NCBI GenBank assembly: GCA_017513125.1
Contig: JAFWDI010000017.1
Span: forward strand, 101,012-165,011
Source: Lachnospiraceae bacterium
Lineage (GTDB): Bacteria; Bacillota; Clostridia; Lachnospirales; Lachnospiraceae
DNA length: 64,000 bases
Direction: 5' to 3'
The position numbers and the translations under genes are program-made. Under the pieces are notes generated by a model. That model searched no databases. It was given only the letters and a program-made list of their open reading frames with translations, and was not told where the DNA came from. Positions 37,002 to 46,818 of the stretch are shown piece after piece. Position 1 is the first letter of the stretch. Each line of letters begins with the position of its first letter.

Positions 37002-37039
37002 ACGCCGCGGCGGAACCGCCGCGCTGAAGGAGAACAGCC

Positions 37040-40000
37040 ATGCGTGAACGTCTGGGGTATCTCGCCAGAGGCCATATCGATTACGGAAAGAGCGCGCTTA
37101 TCGTCTCTTCGAACGCCATTCAGATGCCGGTCGGCGCCGGCACCGTCGAGAAGGGTTCGTTCGAACTGACGAATTCCGCGGGACTCACCGCCATGAAGGG
37201 ACTCGTCCGCTCGACCGACAGCCGCGTCCGCGTTTGGGACGACCGCTTCGTGAGCGGGACCGTGAAGATCCGCTTCGAGGTGAACGCGCAGTTCGAGGAG
37301 CCTGACAGCGCCATTGAGGGCGAGTTCCAGATCATCTCGAGCTGCGGGGAGCACTCAGTCCCCTTCCGCTTCGATATCGTGAACACCGCCGCGGATCACG
37401 CGTCCGGGATCGAGACTCCGGACGATCTCGCGCGCCTCGCCGAGGAGGACGAGGCCGCCGCGTTCTCGCTGTTCACGTCCCCCGGGTTCATTCATCTGCC
37501 GTTCATGAAGAACGGAAACTACCGCGTCCTGTACTCCGGCCTGATCGGCGGAGTGGGGAAGCGCGCCGCGATGGAGGAGTTCCTGACCGGCATCGGTGTG
37601 AAGGAGCGCGTACATCTGAGCGTGAACACCGGGCCGCGGTCCTACGTGATGACGAACGGCGCGATCGCCGACAGCATCACGGTCACGCGGAGCACCTGGG
37701 GTTATGTGAGTCTGGACGTGCGCTCAGACGCGGAGTTCCTGGTTCCCGAGAAGACGTCCTATACGAACAATGACTTCGAAGGCGACCTTCTGAACATCCG
37801 CTACCGGGTGGATCCGAAGGCATTGCACGCGGGAAAAAATTTCGCCCGCCTGAAGATCGACACGGCGGAGAAGTCCTTCGTGATGGACGTGGAGGTCCGC
37901 ACGCAGGGCACTGCCGACGGGGAGGAGATCATTGCCCGGCAGGCGTATCTGAACTACTGCGACCTGTACGTGAACTACCAGCTGCAGGACGGCCACGCGC
38001 ACACGCTGCTGGCGCGGATGCAGTCCGAGCTGACGCGCATGCGCAGCGGCGCCTATGAGACTTCGGATCTCGTCGAGCTGCAGCATGCGGAGATCTTCGC
38101 GCTTCAGGGCCGGACCGAGCAGGCGCAGATCCTGCTCGAGGACGCCGGATCGCGCGTGATGGACGTGCGGAACACGGACGTGGCCGCCTACTGCTACTAC
38201 CTCTATGTGAGAGACCTTCTGGAGCCTTCCGACTCCCTGAAGGAACTGCTTCTGCAGAAGCTGCTGGTCTGCTCCGAGAGCGGAGGACTTCCGGATGACG
38301 CGGTGATCTCTCTGCTGCTGCGGATGGATCCGGTCATGAACGGGAACCCCAGCATGAAGCTCTCGCAGATGAAGGGCTGGTACCGGATGGGCTGCCGCAG
38401 CGCCTTCCTGTTCATGGAGGCGGCGCTGACGGCGGTGCAGAACCCGGAGCTCATCCGCGTGCTCGAGCCGTTCGAGCAGTACATGTTCGATTTCGCGGTG
38501 AAGCACGGCATGGTCACCGACCGCCTCGCGATGAAGGCTGCCGACATGGCGGTCCGCGCGAAGGACCCGACGGGGCGCTTCCTGTACACGCTGATGGACC
38601 TCTACGATCAGAAACCTTCAAAGGAACTGATCGAGGCGATCTGCACGAACCTGATTCGCGGGGGCTGCCGCGGGAGCGAGTGGTTCCGCTGGTATCGCGC
38701 CGGCGTGGAGCAGGATGTGCGCATCACCGGACTCTACGAGCACTTCCTGTATTCGATGCCCGACGACTACCGCGAGCCCTGGCCGCGGATGGTATTGCTG
38801 TACTTTTCGTATAATTCCGTTCTGGACGAGGCTGCGGGCTCGCGCCTCTACCGCTATGTGAACGACCACCCCGACCGGGATCCGGAACTTCGCGAGCGTT
38901 ACCGGACGCAGACCGAGCGCTTCGTGCTGCGCCAGCTGGCGGAGGGCCGCATGAATAACGATCTGGCGGTCCTCTACGACGCCTATCTGGCCCCGGAAAT
39001 GATCGGCGATGAGCTGCTGCCGCGGCTGCCGGAGATCGTGTTCGGCCACAGTATCCGCTGCGAGGCTCCGCAGGTGACGCACGCGGTCGTCTGCTACGAG
39101 GAGCTGCGCGACGAGACCGTCGTTGAGTTCCACGACGGCGTGGCCTGCGCCCCGATCTATACCGAGAACGCGAGAGTCCTCACGCAGGACGCGCGCGGGA
39201 ACCGTTACGAGAGCTTCCCGGTCACGGTCCGTCCGCTGACGCGGAACGCCGACCTGAAGCGCTGGTGCATCGCGAAGAACCCTTCGAACGAGATGATCCT
39301 GCTCGCCTGCGGCAGCCGGGACGGCGCGAAGGACGGCGATGCGGTCGTATACCGGCAGAAACTCCTGCATTTCGAAAATCTTCATCCCGCCTACCGCAGG
39401 GATGTGTTCACCGGACTTACCGAGTGGTATCTGGAACATCCGGACGCGGAGGGCGGCGAAGACTTCCTGCTGACCACGGACAAGCGCTTCCTCGATCCGA
39501 AGGACCGCGCCCGCGTCATCGACCTGATGATCGACAAGGACCTGCTGCCGGAGGCCTGGCGGCTGGTCGAGAAGTTCGGGCCGGCGGGCATTGCCCCCGA
39601 AAAACTGAAAGAACTGTGCAGCCGCATGGTCATGGAGCGGCTGTACGGATACGACGAGCGCGTGCTCGACATGGCGCAGATCTGCTTCGCGAACGACGAA
39701 CTGGACGATAAGATCCTCGAGTATCTGTGCTGCTGGTACAATGCCTCCTCGGCCGACATGTACCGACTTCAGCGGAAGGCTGCCGAGGCCGGCACGGACT
39801 CGCACGACCTGGAGGAGCGCCTGCTCGGGCAGATGCTCTTCTCGGGCGAGACGGAGCATCTGGACGAGATCTTCCTGGCGTATATCGCGCGGTCGTCCTG
39901 CGACGAGATCATCCTGAAGGCCTTCCTCGCGGTGAAGAGCTGGCTTTACGTGATGAAGGGCGAGAAGATCGATACCGACATCGAGCAGTACATGGCGCAG

Positions 40001-40576
40001 CTGTGCGACCAGAGCGACATGCGCGCGCTGCCGGACATCTGCATGATTGCGCTGACGCAGTCGGCCTCCGAGCGGGTGAAGGACCTGACGGCGGAGGGAA
40101 AGGACCTCGTCGAGCGGATGATCCGCAGCCTCTGGGAGAAGGGCTATCTCTTCGGCTTCTATTCAAAGTTCTCGAAGGTCGTGGCGCTTCCCGACGAGTT
40201 CGCGGACAAGGCCATCGTAGAGTACCGCGGCGCTCCGGGCCGGAACCTCCGGATCGTCTGGCGCCTGGCGGACGAAGAGGAGGAGAGCGCGGATCTGCCC
40301 GAAGTGTTCGAGGGCGTCTACGCGACCGCGCTCCCGCTGCTGTACGGCGAGGAGCTGAAGTACGACATCCTTCAGGCGAGCGTCGGCGACGTGCTGACGT
40401 CGGGCACGGTCCGGTTCCTCGGAAAGCCGAAGGCGGCGGCCGTGACGCGTACCGCGGCGCTGAACCGGATCCTCGCGGCGATCGCGAAAGACGACGACGC
40501 TGCGGTCGAGGATGAGATGATGGATTATGCCGTCAAGGACGGCCTGATCGAGAAGTGCTTCACACCGATGGAGTGA
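37040..40576 (+). CDS. uncharacterised 1178-aa protein: N-terminal beta-sandwich-like module + about 1000 aa helical repeats
   Basis: GAAGGAG RBS. Coding-like composition throughout. I recall a Firmicutes DUF family (possibly DUF5717) of this size and neighbourhood; this is unverified. Confidence 0.75.
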   Translation: MRERLGYLARGHIDYGKSALIVSSNAIQMPVGAGTVEKGSFELTNSAGLTAMKGLVRSTDSRVRVWDDRFVSGTVKIRFEVNAQFEEPDSAIEGEFQIISSCGEHSVPFRFDIVNTAADHASGIETPDDLARLAEEDEAAAFSLFTSPGFIHLPFMKNGNYRVLYSGLIGGVGKRAAMEEFLTGIGVKERVHLSVNTGPRSYVMTNGAIADSITVTRSTWGYVSLDVRSDAEFLVPEKTSYTNNDFEGDLLNIRYRVDPKALHAGKNFARLKIDTAEKSFVMDVEVRTQGTADGEEIIARQAYLNYCDLYVNYQLQDGHAHTLLARMQSELTRMRSGAYETSDLVELQHAEIFALQGRTEQAQILLEDAGSRVMDVRNTDVAAYCYYLYVRDLLEPSDSLKELLLQKLLVCSESGGLPDDAVISLLLRMDPVMNGNPSMKLSQMKGWYRMGCRSAFLFMEAALTAVQNPELIRVLEPFEQYMFDFAVKHGMVTDRLAMKAADMAVRAKDPTGRFLYTLMDLYDQKPSKELIEAICTNLIRGGCRGSEWFRWYRAGVEQDVRITGLYEHFLYSMPDDYREPWPRMVLLYFSYNSVLDEAAGSRLYRYVNDHPDRDPELRERYRTQTERFVLRQLAEGRMNNDLAVLYDAYLAPEMIGDELLPRLPEIVFGHSIRCEAPQVTHAVVCYEELRDETVVEFHDGVACAPIYTENARVLTQDARGNRYESFPVTVRPLTRNADLKRWCIAKNPSNEMILLACGSRDGAKDGDAVVYRQKLLHFENLHPAYRRDVFTGLTEWYLEHPDAEGGEDFLLTTDKRFLDPKDRARVIDLMIDKDLLPEAWRLVEKFGPAGIAPEKLKELCSRMVMERLYGYDERVLDMAQICFANDELDDKILEYLCCWYNASSADMYRLQRKAAEAGTDSHDLEERLLGQMLFSGETEHLDEIFLAYIARSSCDEIILKAFLAVKSWLYVMKGEKIDTDIEQYMAQLCDQSDMRALPDICMIALTQSASERVKDLTAEGKDLVERMIRSLWEKGYLFGFYSKFSKVVALPDEFADKAIVEYRGAPGRNLRIVWRLADEEEESADLPEVFEGVYATALPLLYGEELKYDILQASVGDVLTSGTVRFLGKPKAAAVTRTAALNRILAAIAKDDDAAVEDEMMDYAVKDGLIEKCFTPME

Positions 40577-40593
40577 CGGAACGGAGGCAGACT

Positions 40594-41853
40594 ATGGGAC
40601 TGATCATGGGCGTTGACCTTTGCGACGACTACAGTCAGGTCAGCTGGTTCGACAAAAAGATCATGGACGCGGTCCAGGCGGGCACCTCCGAGAAGGAGGA
40701 GTCCTGCCTGATACCTTCGGTGGTGTGCCGCAGAAAAAAGACGGACGACTGGCTGATCGGCGAGGACGCCTATCTGCTGGCGCTCGACGGCGAGGGCACG
40801 ATGGTGGATAAGCCCGTGAAGCTTCTCGAGAAGAAGGGCACGGCCACGATCCGCCGCGTGAAGTATACCGCCTCGGACATCATGCGGATCTTCCTGGAGA
40901 AGCTGATCAATCTCGCGAAGGCCCGCAGCGGCGAGACCGAGATCGAGAGTCTCGTGATCACGCTGCAGGATACATTGCCCGAGGTGCTCGACGCGATGAT
41001 CGGGATCACCGACAGCCTCGGGATCGCGCGCGAAGCGGTGCATATCATCAATCACTGCGAGGCTTACATGTTTTACGTGCTGAGCCAGAAGAAGGAGATC
41101 TGGGCGAACAACACCTGCCTGTTCGACCTGAACGCGAACGATCTGTTTTATTACGAGTTTTCGGTCATGCGCGGGCGGAAGCCCCAGCTGGTGCAGGTCA
41201 GCGGGATGCCGCTCGAGGAGGGCTTCAGCCTCGAAGTCCTGGACACGGAGTCCGGTGAGAAGACCGCGGACACGATACTGACGACCTGCGCGGGCCGCCT
41301 GCTGGATAAGAAGATCATCACGACGGTCTTCCTGACCGGAAAGGGTTTCGAGCGCACGGACTGGGCGCCGGAGTTTCTGCGGACCGTCTGCCAGAAGCGG
41401 CGCGTGTTCTACGGCCAGAACCTGTTCGCGAAGGGGGCGGCGTTTCTGGCGTATGACGCGACATTGCCCCAGACAAGCTTCCCGTACGTCTGCGTCTGCG
41501 AGGGCCGGATCCCCTCGACGATCTCGATGCGCGTGCTCTACGAAGGCAGGGAGCGTCAGCTCGTGGTGCTCTCGGCCGGCACGAACTGGTACGAGGCGAA
41601 GTCCACGGTGGACCTGATCCTCGAGAGTGAAGATTATCTGGAATTTTACGTGACGCCGGCGGCGGGCACGACGCAGAAGCGCTATGTGGTGGATCTGTCG
41701 GAGTTTCCGGCGCGGCCGGTGCGCACCACCAGGGTGCAGGCCGTGTTCGCGTTTACGGACGACCGCCGCATGACGGTGCGCGTGATCGACAAGGGTTTCG
41801 GAGAGTTCTTCCCGGCGAGCGGGAAGATGGTGAAGCAGGACTTCATTATTTGA
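40594..41853 (+). CDS. Hsp70/actin-fold protein with degenerate nucleotide-binding loops
   Basis: GVDLCDDYS aligns with DnaK GIDLGTTNS, LVITLQDTL...IINHCEAYMFY with AVITVPAYF...[12 protein letters not shown], and FDLNANDLF with FDLGGGTFD. GGAGG RBS before ATG 40594. Confidence 0.75.
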   Translation: MGLIMGVDLCDDYSQVSWFDKKIMDAVQAGTSEKEESCLIPSVVCRRKKTDDWLIGEDAYLLALDGEGTMVDKPVKLLEKKGTATIRRVKYTASDIMRIFLEKLINLAKARSGETEIESLVITLQDTLPEVLDAMIGITDSLGIAREAVHIINHCEAYMFYVLSQKKEIWANNTCLFDLNANDLFYYEFSVMRGRKPQLVQVSGMPLEEGFSLEVLDTESGEKTADTILTTCAGRLLDKKIITTVFLTGKGFERTDWAPEFLRTVCQKRRVFYGQNLFAKGAAFLAYDATLPQTSFPYVCVCEGRIPSTISMRVLYEGRERQLVVLSAGTNWYEAKSTVDLILESEDYLEFYVTPAAGTTQKRYVVDLSEFPARPVRTTRVQAVFAFTDDRRMTVRVIDKGFGEFFPASGKMVKQDFII

Positions 41854-41911
41854 TACGGCCCCGCGGAATGTGAAAGCGGGCAGGACCTCAGGTCCGGCCG
41901 GGAGGTAAGTC

Positions 41912-42724
41912 ATGGGATACATTCTGTGCAAAGACGCGGAAGCAGAGCAGCCCTATTACGTGAAAGAACTCGGATTGAGCCTTCGGAGCGCCTACGAGCT
42001 CTGCTACTTTATCTATAATCACAGCGCGCTGATCGACGACGGGTTTCCGTCCGAGGAGATGCTGCGGTTCATCGGGACCGGCTGCCGCATGCCGGACCTG
42101 GAGCGGAAGCTGCGCAAATGGAAGAACGACGGCGAAGACGTCGAAGTGCTCATGCTGACGATTCTGCAGGACGTGCACTACTACGGCGAGCGCGACATGA
42201 GACTGTTCTCGGAGCGCATGAACCGGCGGCGCGGCCTGCCTGCGGCCGAAAAGGCGAAGCAGCGCGCGGACTACCTGCTCGGACAGAAGTATTACTCGGA
42301 GGCGCTGGCCATGTACGAACAGATCCTGCGCGGTGAGTTCGGCGAGCCCGACGACGGACTGCGCGGACGCGTCAGGTATAACAGCGCGGTCGCGATGGCC
42401 GGCCTGTTCCTGTTCGCGGAAGCCGCGGAGGCATTCGCGGAGAGCTATGAGATCCTCGGGCAGGAGAGCATCCTGCGCGATCTGTGCTTCCTCTATGAGA
42501 TCGATGAAACGATCCCGATCCGCAGCGACCTGATCGATCCGGTCCCGGCCAGAAACCGCCTCTTCTGGAAAGAAGAGTATGAGAACGCGAGGACCCGCGC
42601 GGCGAACGAGGGCAAGGCTCTCCGGGTGCGCGCGGCACTCGAAAAGGGCGCGTTCTCCAGGCACGAAGCCGTGACCGCTCTCGCGGAAGAGTGGAAGAAC
42701 GAATATCGGAGAATGTCGCGATGA
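41912..42724 (+). CDS. uncharacterised 270-aa helical (TPR-like) protein
   Basis: GGGAGG RBS. TPR-like stretch (QRADYLLGQKYYSEALAMYEQIL). The stop overlaps the aroK start (ATGA). Confidence 0.65.
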   Translation: MGYILCKDAEAEQPYYVKELGLSLRSAYELCYFIYNHSALIDDGFPSEEMLRFIGTGCRMPDLERKLRKWKNDGEDVEVLMLTILQDVHYYGERDMRLFSERMNRRRGLPAAEKAKQRADYLLGQKYYSEALAMYEQILRGEFGEPDDGLRGRVRYNSAVAMAGLFLFAEAAEAFAESYEILGQESILRDLCFLYEIDETIPIRSDLIDPVPARNRLFWKEEYENARTRAANEGKALRVRAALEKGAFSRHEAVTALAEEWKNEYRRMSR

Positions 42725-43311
42725 CCGGCGGGAACCATGCCGGCCGCGGCGCCGCCGCGAACATCGTCCTCCTGGGTTTCATGGGTTGCGGAAAGACGAC
42801 CGCGGCCGCGAAGCTTGCGGAGATCGGCGGGCTGGAAGCGGTCGAGACGGATGAGATCATTGCCCGCAGGGCCGGAATGAGCATCCCTGAGATCTTCGCC
42901 CGCGAAGGCGAGGAAGGCTTTCGGGCACGCGAGACCGCGGTACTGAGGGAAGCGCTCGCGGGGCGCGGGCGCGTCATATCCTGCGGGGGCGGCGTCGTCA
43001 CGAGGCCGGAGAATGCGGCTCTTCTTCGAGAGGCCGCGGCTGCGGGAAATTGCATCGTGATCCGTCTGACGGCGAGCCCGGAGACGGTCTTCGCACGGAT
43101 CGGCGCGGATCCCGGACGGCCCATGCTGAAGGACGTCCGCGGGCCCGAAGACATCGCGCGTCTGATGGCGCGGCGAGAGGACGCATACCGGGCCGCGGGC
43201 GGCGCGGAGGTCGTCACGGACGGGCGCGGCGCGGAGGAGATCGCGCGGGAGATCCTTAAGATCGCTTCGGACGGCGCGGAGGATCCGGACACCGCGGGAG
43301 AAGACGGATGA
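42721..43311 (+). CDS. aroK: shikimate kinase
   Basis: IVLLGFMGCGKTT Walker A, then ETDEII...G.SI.EIF...GE..FR..E block. Confidence 0.85.
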   Translation: MTGGNHAGRGAAANIVLLGFMGCGKTTAAAKLAEIGGLEAVETDEIIARRAGMSIPEIFAREGEEGFRARETAVLREALAGRGRVISCGGGVVTRPENAALLREAAAAGNCIVIRLTASPETVFARIGADPGRPMLKDVRGPEDIARLMARREDAYRAAGGAEVVTDGRGAEEIAREILKIASDGAEDPDTAGEDG

Positions 43312-43775
43312 AACATTTATATGAGATCTACGACGGCTACGAGGATCTCCGCAAGGGCGAAAAGAAGCTTTTCGGAAGGACGAGGACCTCGAACCGCGAC
43401 GCTTACGCGGCTGCCATGAGGCGGTTCCGCGATACATACGAAGAGGATGTCCTCGATACCTGCGCGCAGGCCGCGGAGAGCGCGGATCCCGCAGGTTTTC
43501 TTTCCGCTTACGGACAGCGGTTCATGGACGAGGCGGAGCGGATCCTCGCGAAGGGGAAGCAGAAGGTCCCGCGCTCCGTGAAGGTCGACAGCACGTTTTT
43601 TACGGTCATGTATGTGATCCCGCTGATCCGGCTGTGCGGCGCCGGGAACCGGGACGACCTCGCGGAGGCGGTCCGCGCGGCCTGGTCGGAGCGCTTCGGC
43701 GAACCGGATATGAAGCTGACGTCGTACCAGGACATCTTCGCTGCATTCAACACGAAATTCCTCGGATTCCTTTAA
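43308..43775 (+). CDS. hypothetical protein (155 aa)
   Basis: ATGA overlap with aroK. Coding-like composition. No family recognised. Confidence 0.6.
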   Translation: MKHLYEIYDGYEDLRKGEKKLFGRTRTSNRDAYAAAMRRFRDTYEEDVLDTCAQAAESADPAGFLSAYGQRFMDEAERILAKGKQKVPRSVKVDSTFFTVMYVIPLIRLCGAGNRDDLAEAVRAAWSERFGEPDMKLTSYQDIFAAFNTKFLGFL

Positions 43776-43785
43776 AGGAGAGAAC

Positions 43786-45276
43786 ATGATACACCAGTAC
43801 AGACAGATGGAGCAGAACATCGTGATGGACGTCTGCAGCGGCGCCGTTCACGTCGTGGACGACGTCGTTTATGACGCGGTCGCGATCTACAGCGGCCTTT
43901 ACGAGGCCGGCATCACGGACCGGACGGAGCTCCGGCAGCGGACCGTCGCGGCATTGATCACCGCGTACGGCGAGGATGACCTGAACGAGGCGGTCGACGA
44001 TATCGAAGAGCTGATCGACGCGGGCGAGCTGTTCGCCCCGGACGAATATCAGGAGTGCCTCGAGGCGTTCAAGGACCGCGGGGCGGTCGTGAAGGCGCTG
44101 TGCCTTCACATTGCCCACGACTGCAACCTCGCCTGCCGCTACTGCTTCGCCGAGGAGGGCGAGTACCACGGCCGCAGGGAGCTGATGAGCTTCGAGACCG
44201 GAAAGAAGGCCCTGGACTTCCTGGTGGCCGCGTCCGGCACCCGCCGGAATCTCGAGGTCGATTTCTTCGGCGGCGAGCCGCTGATGAACTGGGATACCGT
44301 GAAGCGGCTCGTGGCTTACGGGCGTTCGCTCGAGGAGCCGAACGGAAAGCATTTCCGGTTTACGGTCACGACGAACGGTATGCTCCTGAACGACGAGGTC
44401 ATGGAGTTCTGCAACCGCGAGATGGACAATGTCGTCCTTTCGCTCGACGGCCGGAAAGAGGTCAATGACCGCATGCGCCCGACGCCGGGCGGGCACGGCA
44501 GCTACGATATCATCGTCCCGAAGTTTCAGAAGTTCGCGAAGCAGCGCGAGGGCCAGTACTATGTGCGCGGCACCTTCACGCGGCAGAACCTCGATTTCTC
44601 CGAAGATGCGCTGCACTTTCTCGAGCTCGGCTTCGATCGCTTCTCGCTGGAGCCGGTCGTGGCGTCAGAGGATCTCTCCGAGGACATGGCCTATGCGATC
44701 CGGGAGGAGGATCTTCCGAAGATCTTCGCGGAGTATGACCGTCTGGCTGAGATTCTCGTCGAGCGGACGAAAGCCGGGGAACCGTTTACGTTCTTCCACT
44801 TCATGATCGATCTGCAGCAGGGGCCCTGCGTCGCGAAGCGCCTAGCGGGCTGCGGCTCGGGCTGCGAGTATGTGTCCGTCACGCCGAACGGAAACATCTA
44901 TCCCTGCCATCAGTTCGCCGGCGAGGACGAGTTCCTGCTCGGGACCGTCGACACGGGGATCACGAACACGGCGGTGACCGAAGATTTCCGCTCGTGCAAT
45001 GTCTATTCGAAGGAAAAGTGCCGGAACTGCTTCGCCCGCTTCTACTGCAGCGGCGGCTGCGCGGCGAACTCCTATCACTTCCACGGTACGATCCACGACG
45101 CCTACGACATCGGCTGCGAGATGCAGCGGAAGCGGATCGAGTGCGCGATCGCGGTCCAGGCGGCGCTCGCGGCGGACGATGATGACGATGCCGGTTTCGG
45201 GGACGGTGTTCCCGCGATCGATTACGATGCACAGGCGGCGTTTTCGAACCCGCTGTCCTTCACGGAGACGGACTGA
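43786..45276 (+). CDS. scfB: radical SAM/SPASM peptide maturase, SCIFF (CteB) type
   Basis: N-terminus MIHQYRQMEQNIVMDVCSGAVHVVDD is typical of SCIFF maturases. CNLACRYC radical SAM motif. SPASM Cys clusters (CGSGC...PCHQF; CRNCFARFYCSGGCAAN). Confidence 0.8.
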   Translation: MIHQYRQMEQNIVMDVCSGAVHVVDDVVYDAVAIYSGLYEAGITDRTELRQRTVAALITAYGEDDLNEAVDDIEELIDAGELFAPDEYQECLEAFKDRGAVVKALCLHIAHDCNLACRYCFAEEGEYHGRRELMSFETGKKALDFLVAASGTRRNLEVDFFGGEPLMNWDTVKRLVAYGRSLEEPNGKHFRFTVTTNGMLLNDEVMEFCNREMDNVVLSLDGRKEVNDRMRPTPGGHGSYDIIVPKFQKFAKQREGQYYVRGTFTRQNLDFSEDALHFLELGFDRFSLEPVVASEDLSEDMAYAIREEDLPKIFAEYDRLAEILVERTKAGEPFTFFHFMIDLQQGPCVAKRLAGCGSGCEYVSVTPNGNIYPCHQFAGEDEFLLGTVDTGITNTAVTEDFRSCNVYSKEKCRNCFARFYCSGGCAANSYHFHGTIHDAYDIGCEMQRKRIECAIAVQAALAADDDDDAGFGDGVPAIDYDAQAAFSNPLSFTETD

Positions 45277-46780: not shown

Positions 46781-46818
46781 CGGGCTGTCCGCTCGGCACG
46801 GACAGCTCCGATCTTTTT
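46781..46818 (+). terminator. terminator after yajC
   Basis: Stem gctgtccg/cggacagc, with a T5 run a few nt downstream. Confidence 0.55.

Follow-up and report, generated by a model that had tools for sequence, protein, structure and literature searches.

In the fungal ribosome-associated complex (RAC; Ssz1-Zuo1, structures 6sr6 and 7x3k), the Hsp70-fold protein Ssz1 acts as a non-cycling, fixed subunit together with a helical partner, and the title of the 6sr6 entry states that its substrate-binding domain (SBD) holds a pseudo-substrate. Hsp70-type proteins are also the partners of tetratricopeptide repeat (TPR) proteins such as CHIP, Hop/Sti1, FKBP51/52 and TOM70. In the GAP1-N2/DO-GTPase systems, the Hsp70-GrpE theme of which is found predominantly in Firmicutes and Actinobacteria, a protein of fibronectin type III (FNIII) repeats fused to TPRs accompanies an Hsp70, GrpE and an extra Hsp70-domain protein (PMC7159879). 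Here, we analyse three consecutive open reading frames (ORFs; genes 1 to 3, together the triad) of a Lachnospiraceae bacterium (assembly GCA_017513125.1, contig JAFWDI010000017.1, positions 101,012 to 165,011); this whole 64,000-nucleotide stretch is called the window, and coordinates are those of the window unless a locus is named. Genes 1 and 2 belong to the Pfam families DUF5717 and DUF5716, which have a name only and no assigned function; a literature search on these names and on their Pfam/InterPro accessions found no paper, one unrelated article containing the string DUF5716 once. A sequence search of the Protein Data Bank with all three proteins returned nothing significant, and NCBIfam held no model for any of them. 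What we find is best read as an Hsp70-derived system reduced to a pseudo-enzyme (gene 2), a scaffold (gene 1) and an adaptor (gene 3).

Gene 2 is a full-length, high-scoring member of DUF5716_C (PF18980; E = 2.5e-95, 319.3 bits against a gathering cut-off of 34.7 bits, profile positions 2-294 of 296). Its first 130 residues matched no Pfam model, and the protein gave no match to the Hsp70 profile PF00012 at E <= 0.01. In the AlphaFold2 (AF2) model of the single chain (predicted local distance difference test, pLDDT, 92.5; predicted template modelling score, pTM, 0.90), an actin-like nucleotide-binding domain (NBD, residues ~1-290) is followed by the beta part of an SBD (SBD-beta, ~299-419), directly after which the protein ends, so that the alpha-helical lid of the SBD is missing. 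This succession of domains is that of the Hsp70 fold, and Foldseek indeed retrieved the NBD and SBD-beta of DnaK as the nearest structures (4ani, E = 3e-19; 7kru, TMq 0.63), with the atypical Hsp70 Ssz1 (6sr6) also among the matches.

Gene 2 was then aligned with three motif-intact Hsp70s taken from operons of sister families (see below). The phosphate-1 loop, GIDLGTTNS in Hsp70, is altered (Table 1); the phosphate-2 loop reads FDLNANDLF instead of DxGGGTxD, with no glycine where GGGT sits; and the adenosine motif is LTGKGFE in place of VGGS (G-G-x). Subdomain IIB, which in Hsp70s closes over the nucleotide and contacts GrpE, is deleted, leaving an alignment gap of ~75-95 columns. Gene 2 thus fails the tests for a functional Hsp70 at the three nucleotide motifs, at subdomain IIB, at the lid and at PF00012. 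It retains the SBD-beta signature LxxFPARPxxTTRV as well as D8 and D178 (equivalent to D8 and D194 of DnaK), both invariant or nearly so, and two glycines of the adenosine motif remain, G249 and G251. Gene 2 is therefore a derived Hsp70 paralogue in which the actin-like core of the NBD and SBD-beta have been kept; the initial annotation, made from the DNA letters alone, had called it a pseudo-ATPase of Hsp70 fold, and AF2, Foldseek and the motif alignment all agree. Five or six cysteines are conserved among the Lachnospiraceae DUF5716 proteins (C10, in the former phosphate-1 loop, C45, C232, C266 and C300/C302). They are specific to this lineage, being present neither in the DUF5716 proteins of the expanded cluster described below nor in Hsp70s; one possibility is that they make up a metal or redox site at the former place of ATP.

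Gene 1 matches both DUF5717 profiles above their cut-offs (25 bits each) and almost over their full length: DUF5717_N (PF18984) at residues 1-868 (E = 1.9e-227, 757.6 bits, profile 1-873 of 875) and DUF5717 (PF18983) at residues 872-1174 (E = 7.6e-64, 216.2 bits, profile 1-306 of 306). The two DUF families suggested in the initial annotation were thus the right ones. A single-chain AF2 model, built from an alignment of 36 homologues (pLDDT 85.6), contains four beta domains (20-114, 193-288, 669-732 and 1057-1125) and two solenoids. The fold types foreseen for this protein were correct, whereas the layout was not, since a single N-terminal beta-sandwich followed by about 1000 residues of helical repeats had been expected. 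A helical insert (116-184) splits the two N-terminal beta-sandwiches. Foldseek matched the first ~285 residues to the ASH arrays of the ciliary central pair (7sqc_2A, E = 9e-7; 9ijj), and this N-terminal part also to the SPD-2 domain of CEP192 (9fh8, 7ptb) and to the Porphyromonas gingivalis structure 2qsv; the solenoids matched the TPR superhelices of Ctr9, Ski3 and IFT-A.

The most conserved patch of gene 1 runs from W551 to Y604, in solenoid 1. In the homologue alignment, the invariant residues are glycines and aromatics and no enzyme-like motif was seen. No transmembrane (TM) segment is predicted, and on that prediction the product is taken to be cytoplasmic. As modelled, gene 1 is a non-enzymatic scaffold made only of protein-binding folds, namely ASH/MSP sandwiches and TPR-like solenoids. 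One short element stands out: whole-protein identity is only 25-35% across the family, whereas the N-terminal peptide (Table 1) is nearly invariant, with I5 conserved in 63, L8 in 62, A9 in 64 and G11 in all of 66 homologues. We consider it a candidate docking peptide.

Gene 3 has no Pfam or NCBIfam model of its own. An alignment of 35 homologues defines a conserved N-terminal domain (N-domain, residues 1-105), a stretch of about two TPRs (110-190) and, at the C-terminus, a helix carrying an invariant W-K-x-E-Y-R (261-266). The family profile matched consensus TPR proteins at E = 9e-23; among natural proteins it matched CHIP, Hop, FKBP51 and TOM70 over two TPRs (E = 1e-5 to 1e-6). Pfam recognised TPR_2 in 29, TPR_1 in 25 and TPR_12 in 25 of the 35 members; the window copy taken alone gave TPR_12 at only E = 0.05. 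Judged by tandem 34-residue motifs that match TPR profiles, gene 3 is therefore a TPR-repeat protein on the strength of its family profile, in line with the TPR-like character ascribed to it earlier. The N-domain forms a sizeable family without a model in the Pfam copy that we searched: searching a library of 1.84 billion proteins with it gave 1532 clusters (50% identity), and among the best 150 clusters most representatives were full-length proteins of ~270 residues and the rest shorter fragments, with the domain N-terminal in nearly all. The C-terminal tails of DUF5716 and DUF5717 were considered as TPR ligands and rejected as too variable. An EEVD-like tail is absent from both and from DnaK, which ends in ...DADFRQV.

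The three genes stay together. The order DUF5717-DUF5716-gene 3 was found in all same-family genomes inspected (20 genomes), and the complete triad in 78 of 80 named Lachnospiraceae loci, among them those of Fusibacillus, Lientehia, Hungatella, Enterocloster, Hominifimenecus, Lachnotalea and Cuneatibacter; the other two loci are short of one gene each, one of them at a contig end. Co-occurrence of the three genes, the lack of which would, by the initial annotation, have refuted its reading, is thus the rule. PF18984 was present in 24/24 Lachnospiraceae genomes searched and PF18980 in 14/14 in an order-level survey. Among 300 genomes sampled across the class, PF18980 occurred in 9/9 Lachnospiraceae and in 0/290 genomes of other Clostridia families, and the module was found in none of 14 control genomes. 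The flanks are less constant: rarA is adjacent to the triad in ~50 of the 80 loci and on the opposite strand in 14, and aroK lies 3' of it in 33. The other recurrent neighbours are an ORF that we take, by eye from its sequence, to be ispE-like, and further unannotated ORFs; none of the recurrent neighbours occurs in more than a bare majority of the 80 loci, and a fourth, membrane-protein gene 3' of gene 3 was found in none. Since the neighbours vary while the three genes remain together, the triad is a conserved unit set in housekeeping DNA, and its link to rarA and aroK is one of conserved gene order, not of a fixed operon. The placement among core genes noted at the outset holds in this sense.

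Against a relative at 94% identity, the ratio of non-synonymous to synonymous substitution (dN/dS) was 0.18 for gene 1, 0.06 for gene 2 and 0.09 for gene 3; these are therefore real genes under purifying selection. The pairwise distances of the three proteins correlated with one another at Spearman 0.76-0.81 and with those of the adjacent rarA at 0.59-0.79, the observed value being reached in 0/300 permutations. These results fit vertical descent and co-evolution, with the caveat that rarA is a linked gene. In one genome (G449, L113:4392-6569, minus strand), a single 725-residue ORF joins DUF5716 (18-435) to a gene 3 homologue (from 452) through a linker of ~16 residues. This fusion, the longest branch of the DUF5716 tree, places the gene 3 N-domain at the C-terminus of DUF5716 and provides a Rosetta-stone argument that the two proteins may be physically associated.

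In other Lachnospirales families, DUF5717 is split into an ASH protein of ~395 residues and a solenoid protein of ~900 residues, both encoded in a larger cluster of nine genes (Table 1). The triad corresponds to genes 2 and 3 (fused), 6 and 9 of that cluster; it consists of the non-ATPase parts of the nine-gene operon, a key piece of context that the initial annotation had missed. Two of the nine proteins deserve mention in their own right. The Hsp70-vWA fusion (L030:16748-18835, plus strand, and homologues), in which a C-terminal vWA domain replaces the helical lid region, evolves very slowly, with terminal branches of ~0.1. The membrane protein (L030:4632-5969, plus strand, with homologues in L027, L028 and L031) has a MotA/ExbB-like layout; its tail gave a weak PADLOC match to the ZorA tail of Zorya systems (E = 1e-5), which is probably coiled-coil similarity. 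The window's own genome (87% complete) yielded no homologue of this membrane protein; its one full-length Hsp70 match is DnaK, next to a weak partial PF00012 match in a 333-residue frame. A J-domain was found in no protein of the triad or of the nine-gene operon, a P-loop motif in none of the operon's four domainless-looking proteins (membrane, ASH, solenoid and GrpE-fusion), and a GTPase family match in neither the triad nor the expanded cluster.

At the level of the order, the module is largely all-or-none by family (for example 14/14, 8/8 and 5/5 against 0/14, 0/13 and 0/13), a few families being mixed (for example 4/14 and 5/13). Genomes outside the Lachnospiraceae usually contain two PF18980 matches, which in the clusters inspected are DUF5716 and Hsp70-B. 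In a maximum-likelihood tree, DnaK, Hsp70-vWA and Hsp70-A group together and Hsp70-B lies beside the DUF5716 proteins; two long branches (1.09 and 1.03) lead to the Lachnospiraceae DUF5716 clade together with the intermediate genome G027. Judging from these sequences, DUF5716 appears to have arisen within a Lachnospirales-specific operon, next to Hsp70-B. We read the three-gene operon as a reduced form of the nine-gene, multi-Hsp70 operon, because DUF5716 is a degenerate Hsp70 and its Lachnospiraceae form is the most degenerate, with IIB and the loops gone. On this reading, exactly the parts that are not NTPases remain in the Lachnospiraceae; the three Hsp70s with intact motifs have been lost, and so have the exchange factor, the membrane protein and the vWA domain.

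All together, these results suggest that the three proteins would form a constitutive cytoplasmic complex in which DUF5716 would act as a nucleotide-independent peptide clamp or bridge, and not as a cycling chaperone. Its SBD-beta would hold a segment of a partner, for which the basic-hydrophobic N-terminal peptide of gene 1 is the candidate; the pseudo-substrate bound by Ssz1 in 6sr6 serves as the model for this proposed docking. The TPR protein would sit at the C-terminal side of DUF5716, and scaffold and TPRs would present many peptide-binding surfaces to a putative client. In RAC, the pseudo-substrate of Ssz1 is a segment of its partner Zuo1. The module cannot run an Hsp70 cycle alone because it has no ATPase, J-domain or nucleotide-exchange factor of its own, and any ATP-driven step would thus have to be supplied by the housekeeping DnaK. 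For the same reason, the dedicated assembly or chaperone machine originally envisaged goes beyond the data. A constitutive complex built around a pseudo-Hsp70 clamp is, in our view, the best overall explanation and stands at about even chances; the structural and evolutionary statements on the triad are made with high confidence, and the clamp-and-scaffold mechanism, in the precise form worded here, is tentative.

Several points weigh against this explanation. The missing canonical loops are no proof that nucleotide can no longer be bound, since D8, D178 and G249/G251 have been kept. The docking of the gene 1 peptide into the SBD is drawn solely from the analogy with Ssz1. The fusion of DUF5716 to gene 3 comes from a single draft genome and may be an artefact of assembly. 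The direction from nine genes to three depends on the degeneracy of DUF5716 and on a tree with an untested root. Finally, the structural models are of single chains, so that the complex is a proposal.

The alternative that survives best is that the triad is not an autonomous holdase but a co-chaperone platform analogous to RAC, which would position DnaK, or deliver clients to it, at a specific place, for instance on the ribosome or the membrane. In the expanded operon, DUF5716 does stand beside three Hsp70s with intact motifs and a GrpE domain, DnaK is the only full-length Hsp70 match in the window genome, the Ssz1 of RAC is a structural neighbour of gene 2, and the TPR profile of gene 3 is closest to Hsp70/Hsp90 co-chaperones. 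However, neither version of the operon encodes a J-domain, and the tail of DnaK is not an EEVD-type TPR ligand. Moreover, gene 3 apparently has a conserved Asp where clamp-type TPRs such as those of CHIP and Hop have Asn. Such a platform is a refinement of the constitutive complex and does not contradict it; we regard it as rather unlikely. In its fullest form, the proposal would make the triad necessary for vegetative growth: a dead Hsp70 would be locked on a giant ASH/TPR scaffold through the N-terminal peptide, as a bacterial counterpart of RAC, the scaffold would organise a specific process and recruit DnaK, and the cysteines would perhaps form a metal or redox site. That conjunction is less likely still. 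A literature search for transposon sequencing (Tn-seq) in Lachnospiraceae found no usable study.

DUF5716 might, alternatively, still be an active, nucleotide-driven chaperone with non-canonical motifs, the operon being a self-contained, specialised folding or assembly machine of the kind that the initial annotation envisaged. The intact NBD fold, modelled with high confidence, and the residues D8, D178, G249 and G251 are what would be expected of it. The substitutions, however, fall on the phosphate loops themselves (GTTNS became CDDYS in phosphate-1, and GGGT became glycine-free residues in phosphate-2), subdomain IIB is deleted, and the module contains no lid, J-protein or exchange factor. 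The Lachnospiraceae DUF5716 clade also sits on a long branch, as opposed to the slowly evolving Hsp70 paralogues that kept their motifs. An active ATPase is, for these reasons, improbable, and the pseudo-Hsp70 clamp is to be preferred.

It could also be asked whether the module is a conflict or anti-phage system akin to the Hsp70-GrpE theme of GTPase-centred systems (Kaur et al. 2020, PMC7159879). The expanded operon has the same cast, with a beta-sandwich and TPR protein, Hsp70s, GrpE, an extra Hsp70-like protein and a vWA domain; with mean p-distances of 0.65 and 0.59, genes 1 and 3 evolve faster than rarA (0.27); and PADLOC gave weak matches in the expanded version, to the membrane protein tail already mentioned and to the Hsp70s (PDC-M61B). 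In contrast, PADLOC-DB 2.0 had no match for the three window proteins at E <= 0.01, and the operon has no P-loop in its four domainless proteins, no GTPase match and no effector-type domain. All Lachnospiraceae genomes searched have the module, as a single copy set among recurring housekeeping neighbours, its distances track rarA and its dN/dS is low, a pattern opposite to that of patchy, mobile defence systems. We therefore hold this reading to be very improbable, and the preference for housekeeping over defence voiced in the initial annotation fits the family-wide presence, the divergence in step with rarA and the lack of PADLOC matches. Least credible of all is a sporulation- or differentiation-specific assembly factor: the lineage is clostridial and spore morphogenesis typically involves large scaffolds, but the cross-tabulation with SpoIVA contradicts the link, SpoIVA being found in only 7/14 Lachnospiraceae while the module is in all 14, and in 14/14 and 13/13 genomes of two families that are free of the module. 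The genome of the window (87% complete) gave no match to SpoIVA, and the organism may be non-spore-forming. The data thus argue for a general vegetative function over defence or sporulation.

The immediate surroundings of the triad are as follows. Pfam identified RarA/MgsA upstream, and a shikimate kinase (aroK) and a radical SAM/SPASM protein downstream, followed further on by TGT, YajC and a class-V aminotransferase. Spacers are 38 nucleotides between rarA and gene 1, 17 between genes 1 and 2 and 58 between genes 2 and 3. For gene 2, a GGAGG lies 7 nucleotides 5' of the ATG at 40594, which makes this a likelier start than the upstream GTG; gene 3 is preceded by GGGAGG. The ORFs, ribosome-binding sites (RBSs), 17- and 58-nucleotide gaps and ATGA overlaps reported initially, together with the rarA and scfB-tgt-yajC context, were confirmed by the sequence and by Pfam. 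Being found 3' of the triad in only 33/80 related loci, aroK is a neighbour outside the module. It is coupled by an ATGA overlap to a 155-residue ORF (43308-43775, plus strand), which matches nothing in Pfam or NCBIfam, is predicted to lack TM segments and, being present in only 1/80 related Lachnospiraceae loci, is lineage-specific and likewise outside the module. Ten nucleotides after this ORF starts a radical SAM and SPASM protein that resembles SCIFF maturases (43786-45276, plus strand), and no small Cys-rich precursor gene lies directly 5' of it.

An inverted repeat in the 38-nucleotide spacer, between the rarA stop codon and the RBS of gene 1 (Table 1), is not followed by a T-tract and was not called by a terminator scan. 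Because the T-tract is missing, the hairpin may have an RNA-stability, processing or attenuating role within a rarA-yajC transcript. The sole strong terminator-like hairpin in the 34.8-47 kb interval (46782-46808) is 3' of yajC, so that a single long transcript from rarA to yajC seems plausible.

Table 1. Features of the triad and its flanks (window coordinates), and gene content of the nine-gene operon of sister families.
Feature	Position	Strand	Description
Gene 1	37040-40576	+	1178 aa; first of the three consecutive ORFs
Gene 2	40594-41853	+	419 aa from ATG 40594; frame opens at 40555, 432 aa from GTG
Gene 3	41912-42724	+	270-aa ORF
Inverted repeat	37006-37023	+	cgcggcgg aa ccgccgcg; perfect 8-bp arms, 2-nt loop, GC-rich
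Gene 1 RBS	37026-37033	+	GAAGGAGA; read from the sequence
Gene 1 N-terminal peptide	37043-37072	+	M-[RK]-E-[RK]-I-x-[RQ]-L-A-[KR]-G; helix 2-9 in the AF2 model
Two ASH/MSP-type (PapD-like) beta-sandwiches, gene 1	37097-37903	+	residues 20-114 and 193-288; AF2 and Foldseek
TPR-like alpha-solenoid 1, gene 1	37919-39040	+	residues 294-667; AF2
Small beta domain between the solenoids, gene 1	39044-39235	+	residues 669-732; AF2
Alpha-solenoid 2, gene 1	39248-40204	+	residues 737-1055; AF2 and Foldseek
C-terminal beta domain and helical hairpin, gene 1	40208-40558	+	residues 1057-1125 and 1137-1173; AF2
Phosphate-1 loop, gene 2	40609-40638	+	GVDLCDDYSQ
FPYVCVCEGR, gene 2	41479-41508	+	best-conserved motif in the family; lies where Hsp70s have the interdomain linker; two conserved cysteines
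ATGA overlap gene 3/aroK	42721-42724	+	couples gene 3 to aroK
ATGA overlap aroK/155-aa ORF	43308-43311	+	read from the sequence
Operon gene 1			membrane protein, ~445 aa; three TM helices (1 + 2 hairpin), long coiled-coil tail
Operon gene 2			ASH protein, ~395 aa
Operon gene 3			solenoid protein, ~900 aa
Operon gene 4			Hsp70-A, 559 aa, motifs intact
Operon gene 5			627-aa protein with a C-terminal GrpE domain (PF01025, E = 7e-10)
Operon gene 6			DUF5716, 526 aa; IIB present, motifs half degenerate
Operon gene 7			Hsp70-B, 547 aa; DUF5716_C-like SBD
Operon gene 8			Hsp70-vWA fusion, 695 aa
Operon gene 9			~385-aa (387-aa) protein; gene 3 N-domain and ~7 clear TPRs; hhalign probability 99.1%, E = 9e-19

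In the gut of humans and animals, few families are as abundant as the Lachnospiraceae, to which major butyrate producers belong; an operon present in every one of their genomes that we searched has nevertheless been named only by three DUF numbers. It offers a natural case of an Hsp70 machine that would have shed all its ATPases and kept a scaffold, a dead Hsp70 and an adaptor, and it bears both on the retention of pseudo-enzymes as structural subunits and on how an SBD may act without a nucleotide cycle. The putative nine-gene parent operon, with its three Hsp70 paralogues, a GrpE fusion, an Hsp70-vWA protein and no J-protein, is itself an undescribed chaperone system.

How does the triad compare with the systems from which we started? 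With DnaK-DnaJ-GrpE, gene 2 shares the NBD and SBD-beta, its LxxFPARPxxTTRV paralleling the SBD-beta signature of DnaK, and the sister operon includes a GrpE domain; it differs in that all three nucleotide motifs of gene 2 are replaced, IIB and the lid are gone and the module has neither a J-protein nor a nucleotide-exchange factor. From the DO-GTPase/GAP1-N2 systems (PMC7159879) the triad is set apart, as no GTPase was matched and no effector seen, GAP1 not having been searched for specifically; it contains no NTPases at all, and it is vertical-looking and family-wide where those systems are patchy. Gene 3 resembles the CHIP/Hop class in its TPRs, but has about two of them instead of a three-TPR clamp, and adds a unique 100-residue N-domain and the W-K-x-E-Y-R tail; on these sequence features, it is best described as a truncated TPR adaptor. 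As for RAC, the triad lacks a J-domain partner and is not a member of that class, and DUF5716, with its origin beside Hsp70-B in a Lachnospirales operon, is not an orthologue of Ssz1; it also has neither IIB nor a lid. Nevertheless, Ssz1 in RAC is, by analogy, the nearest functional counterpart of gene 2 among the systems compared.

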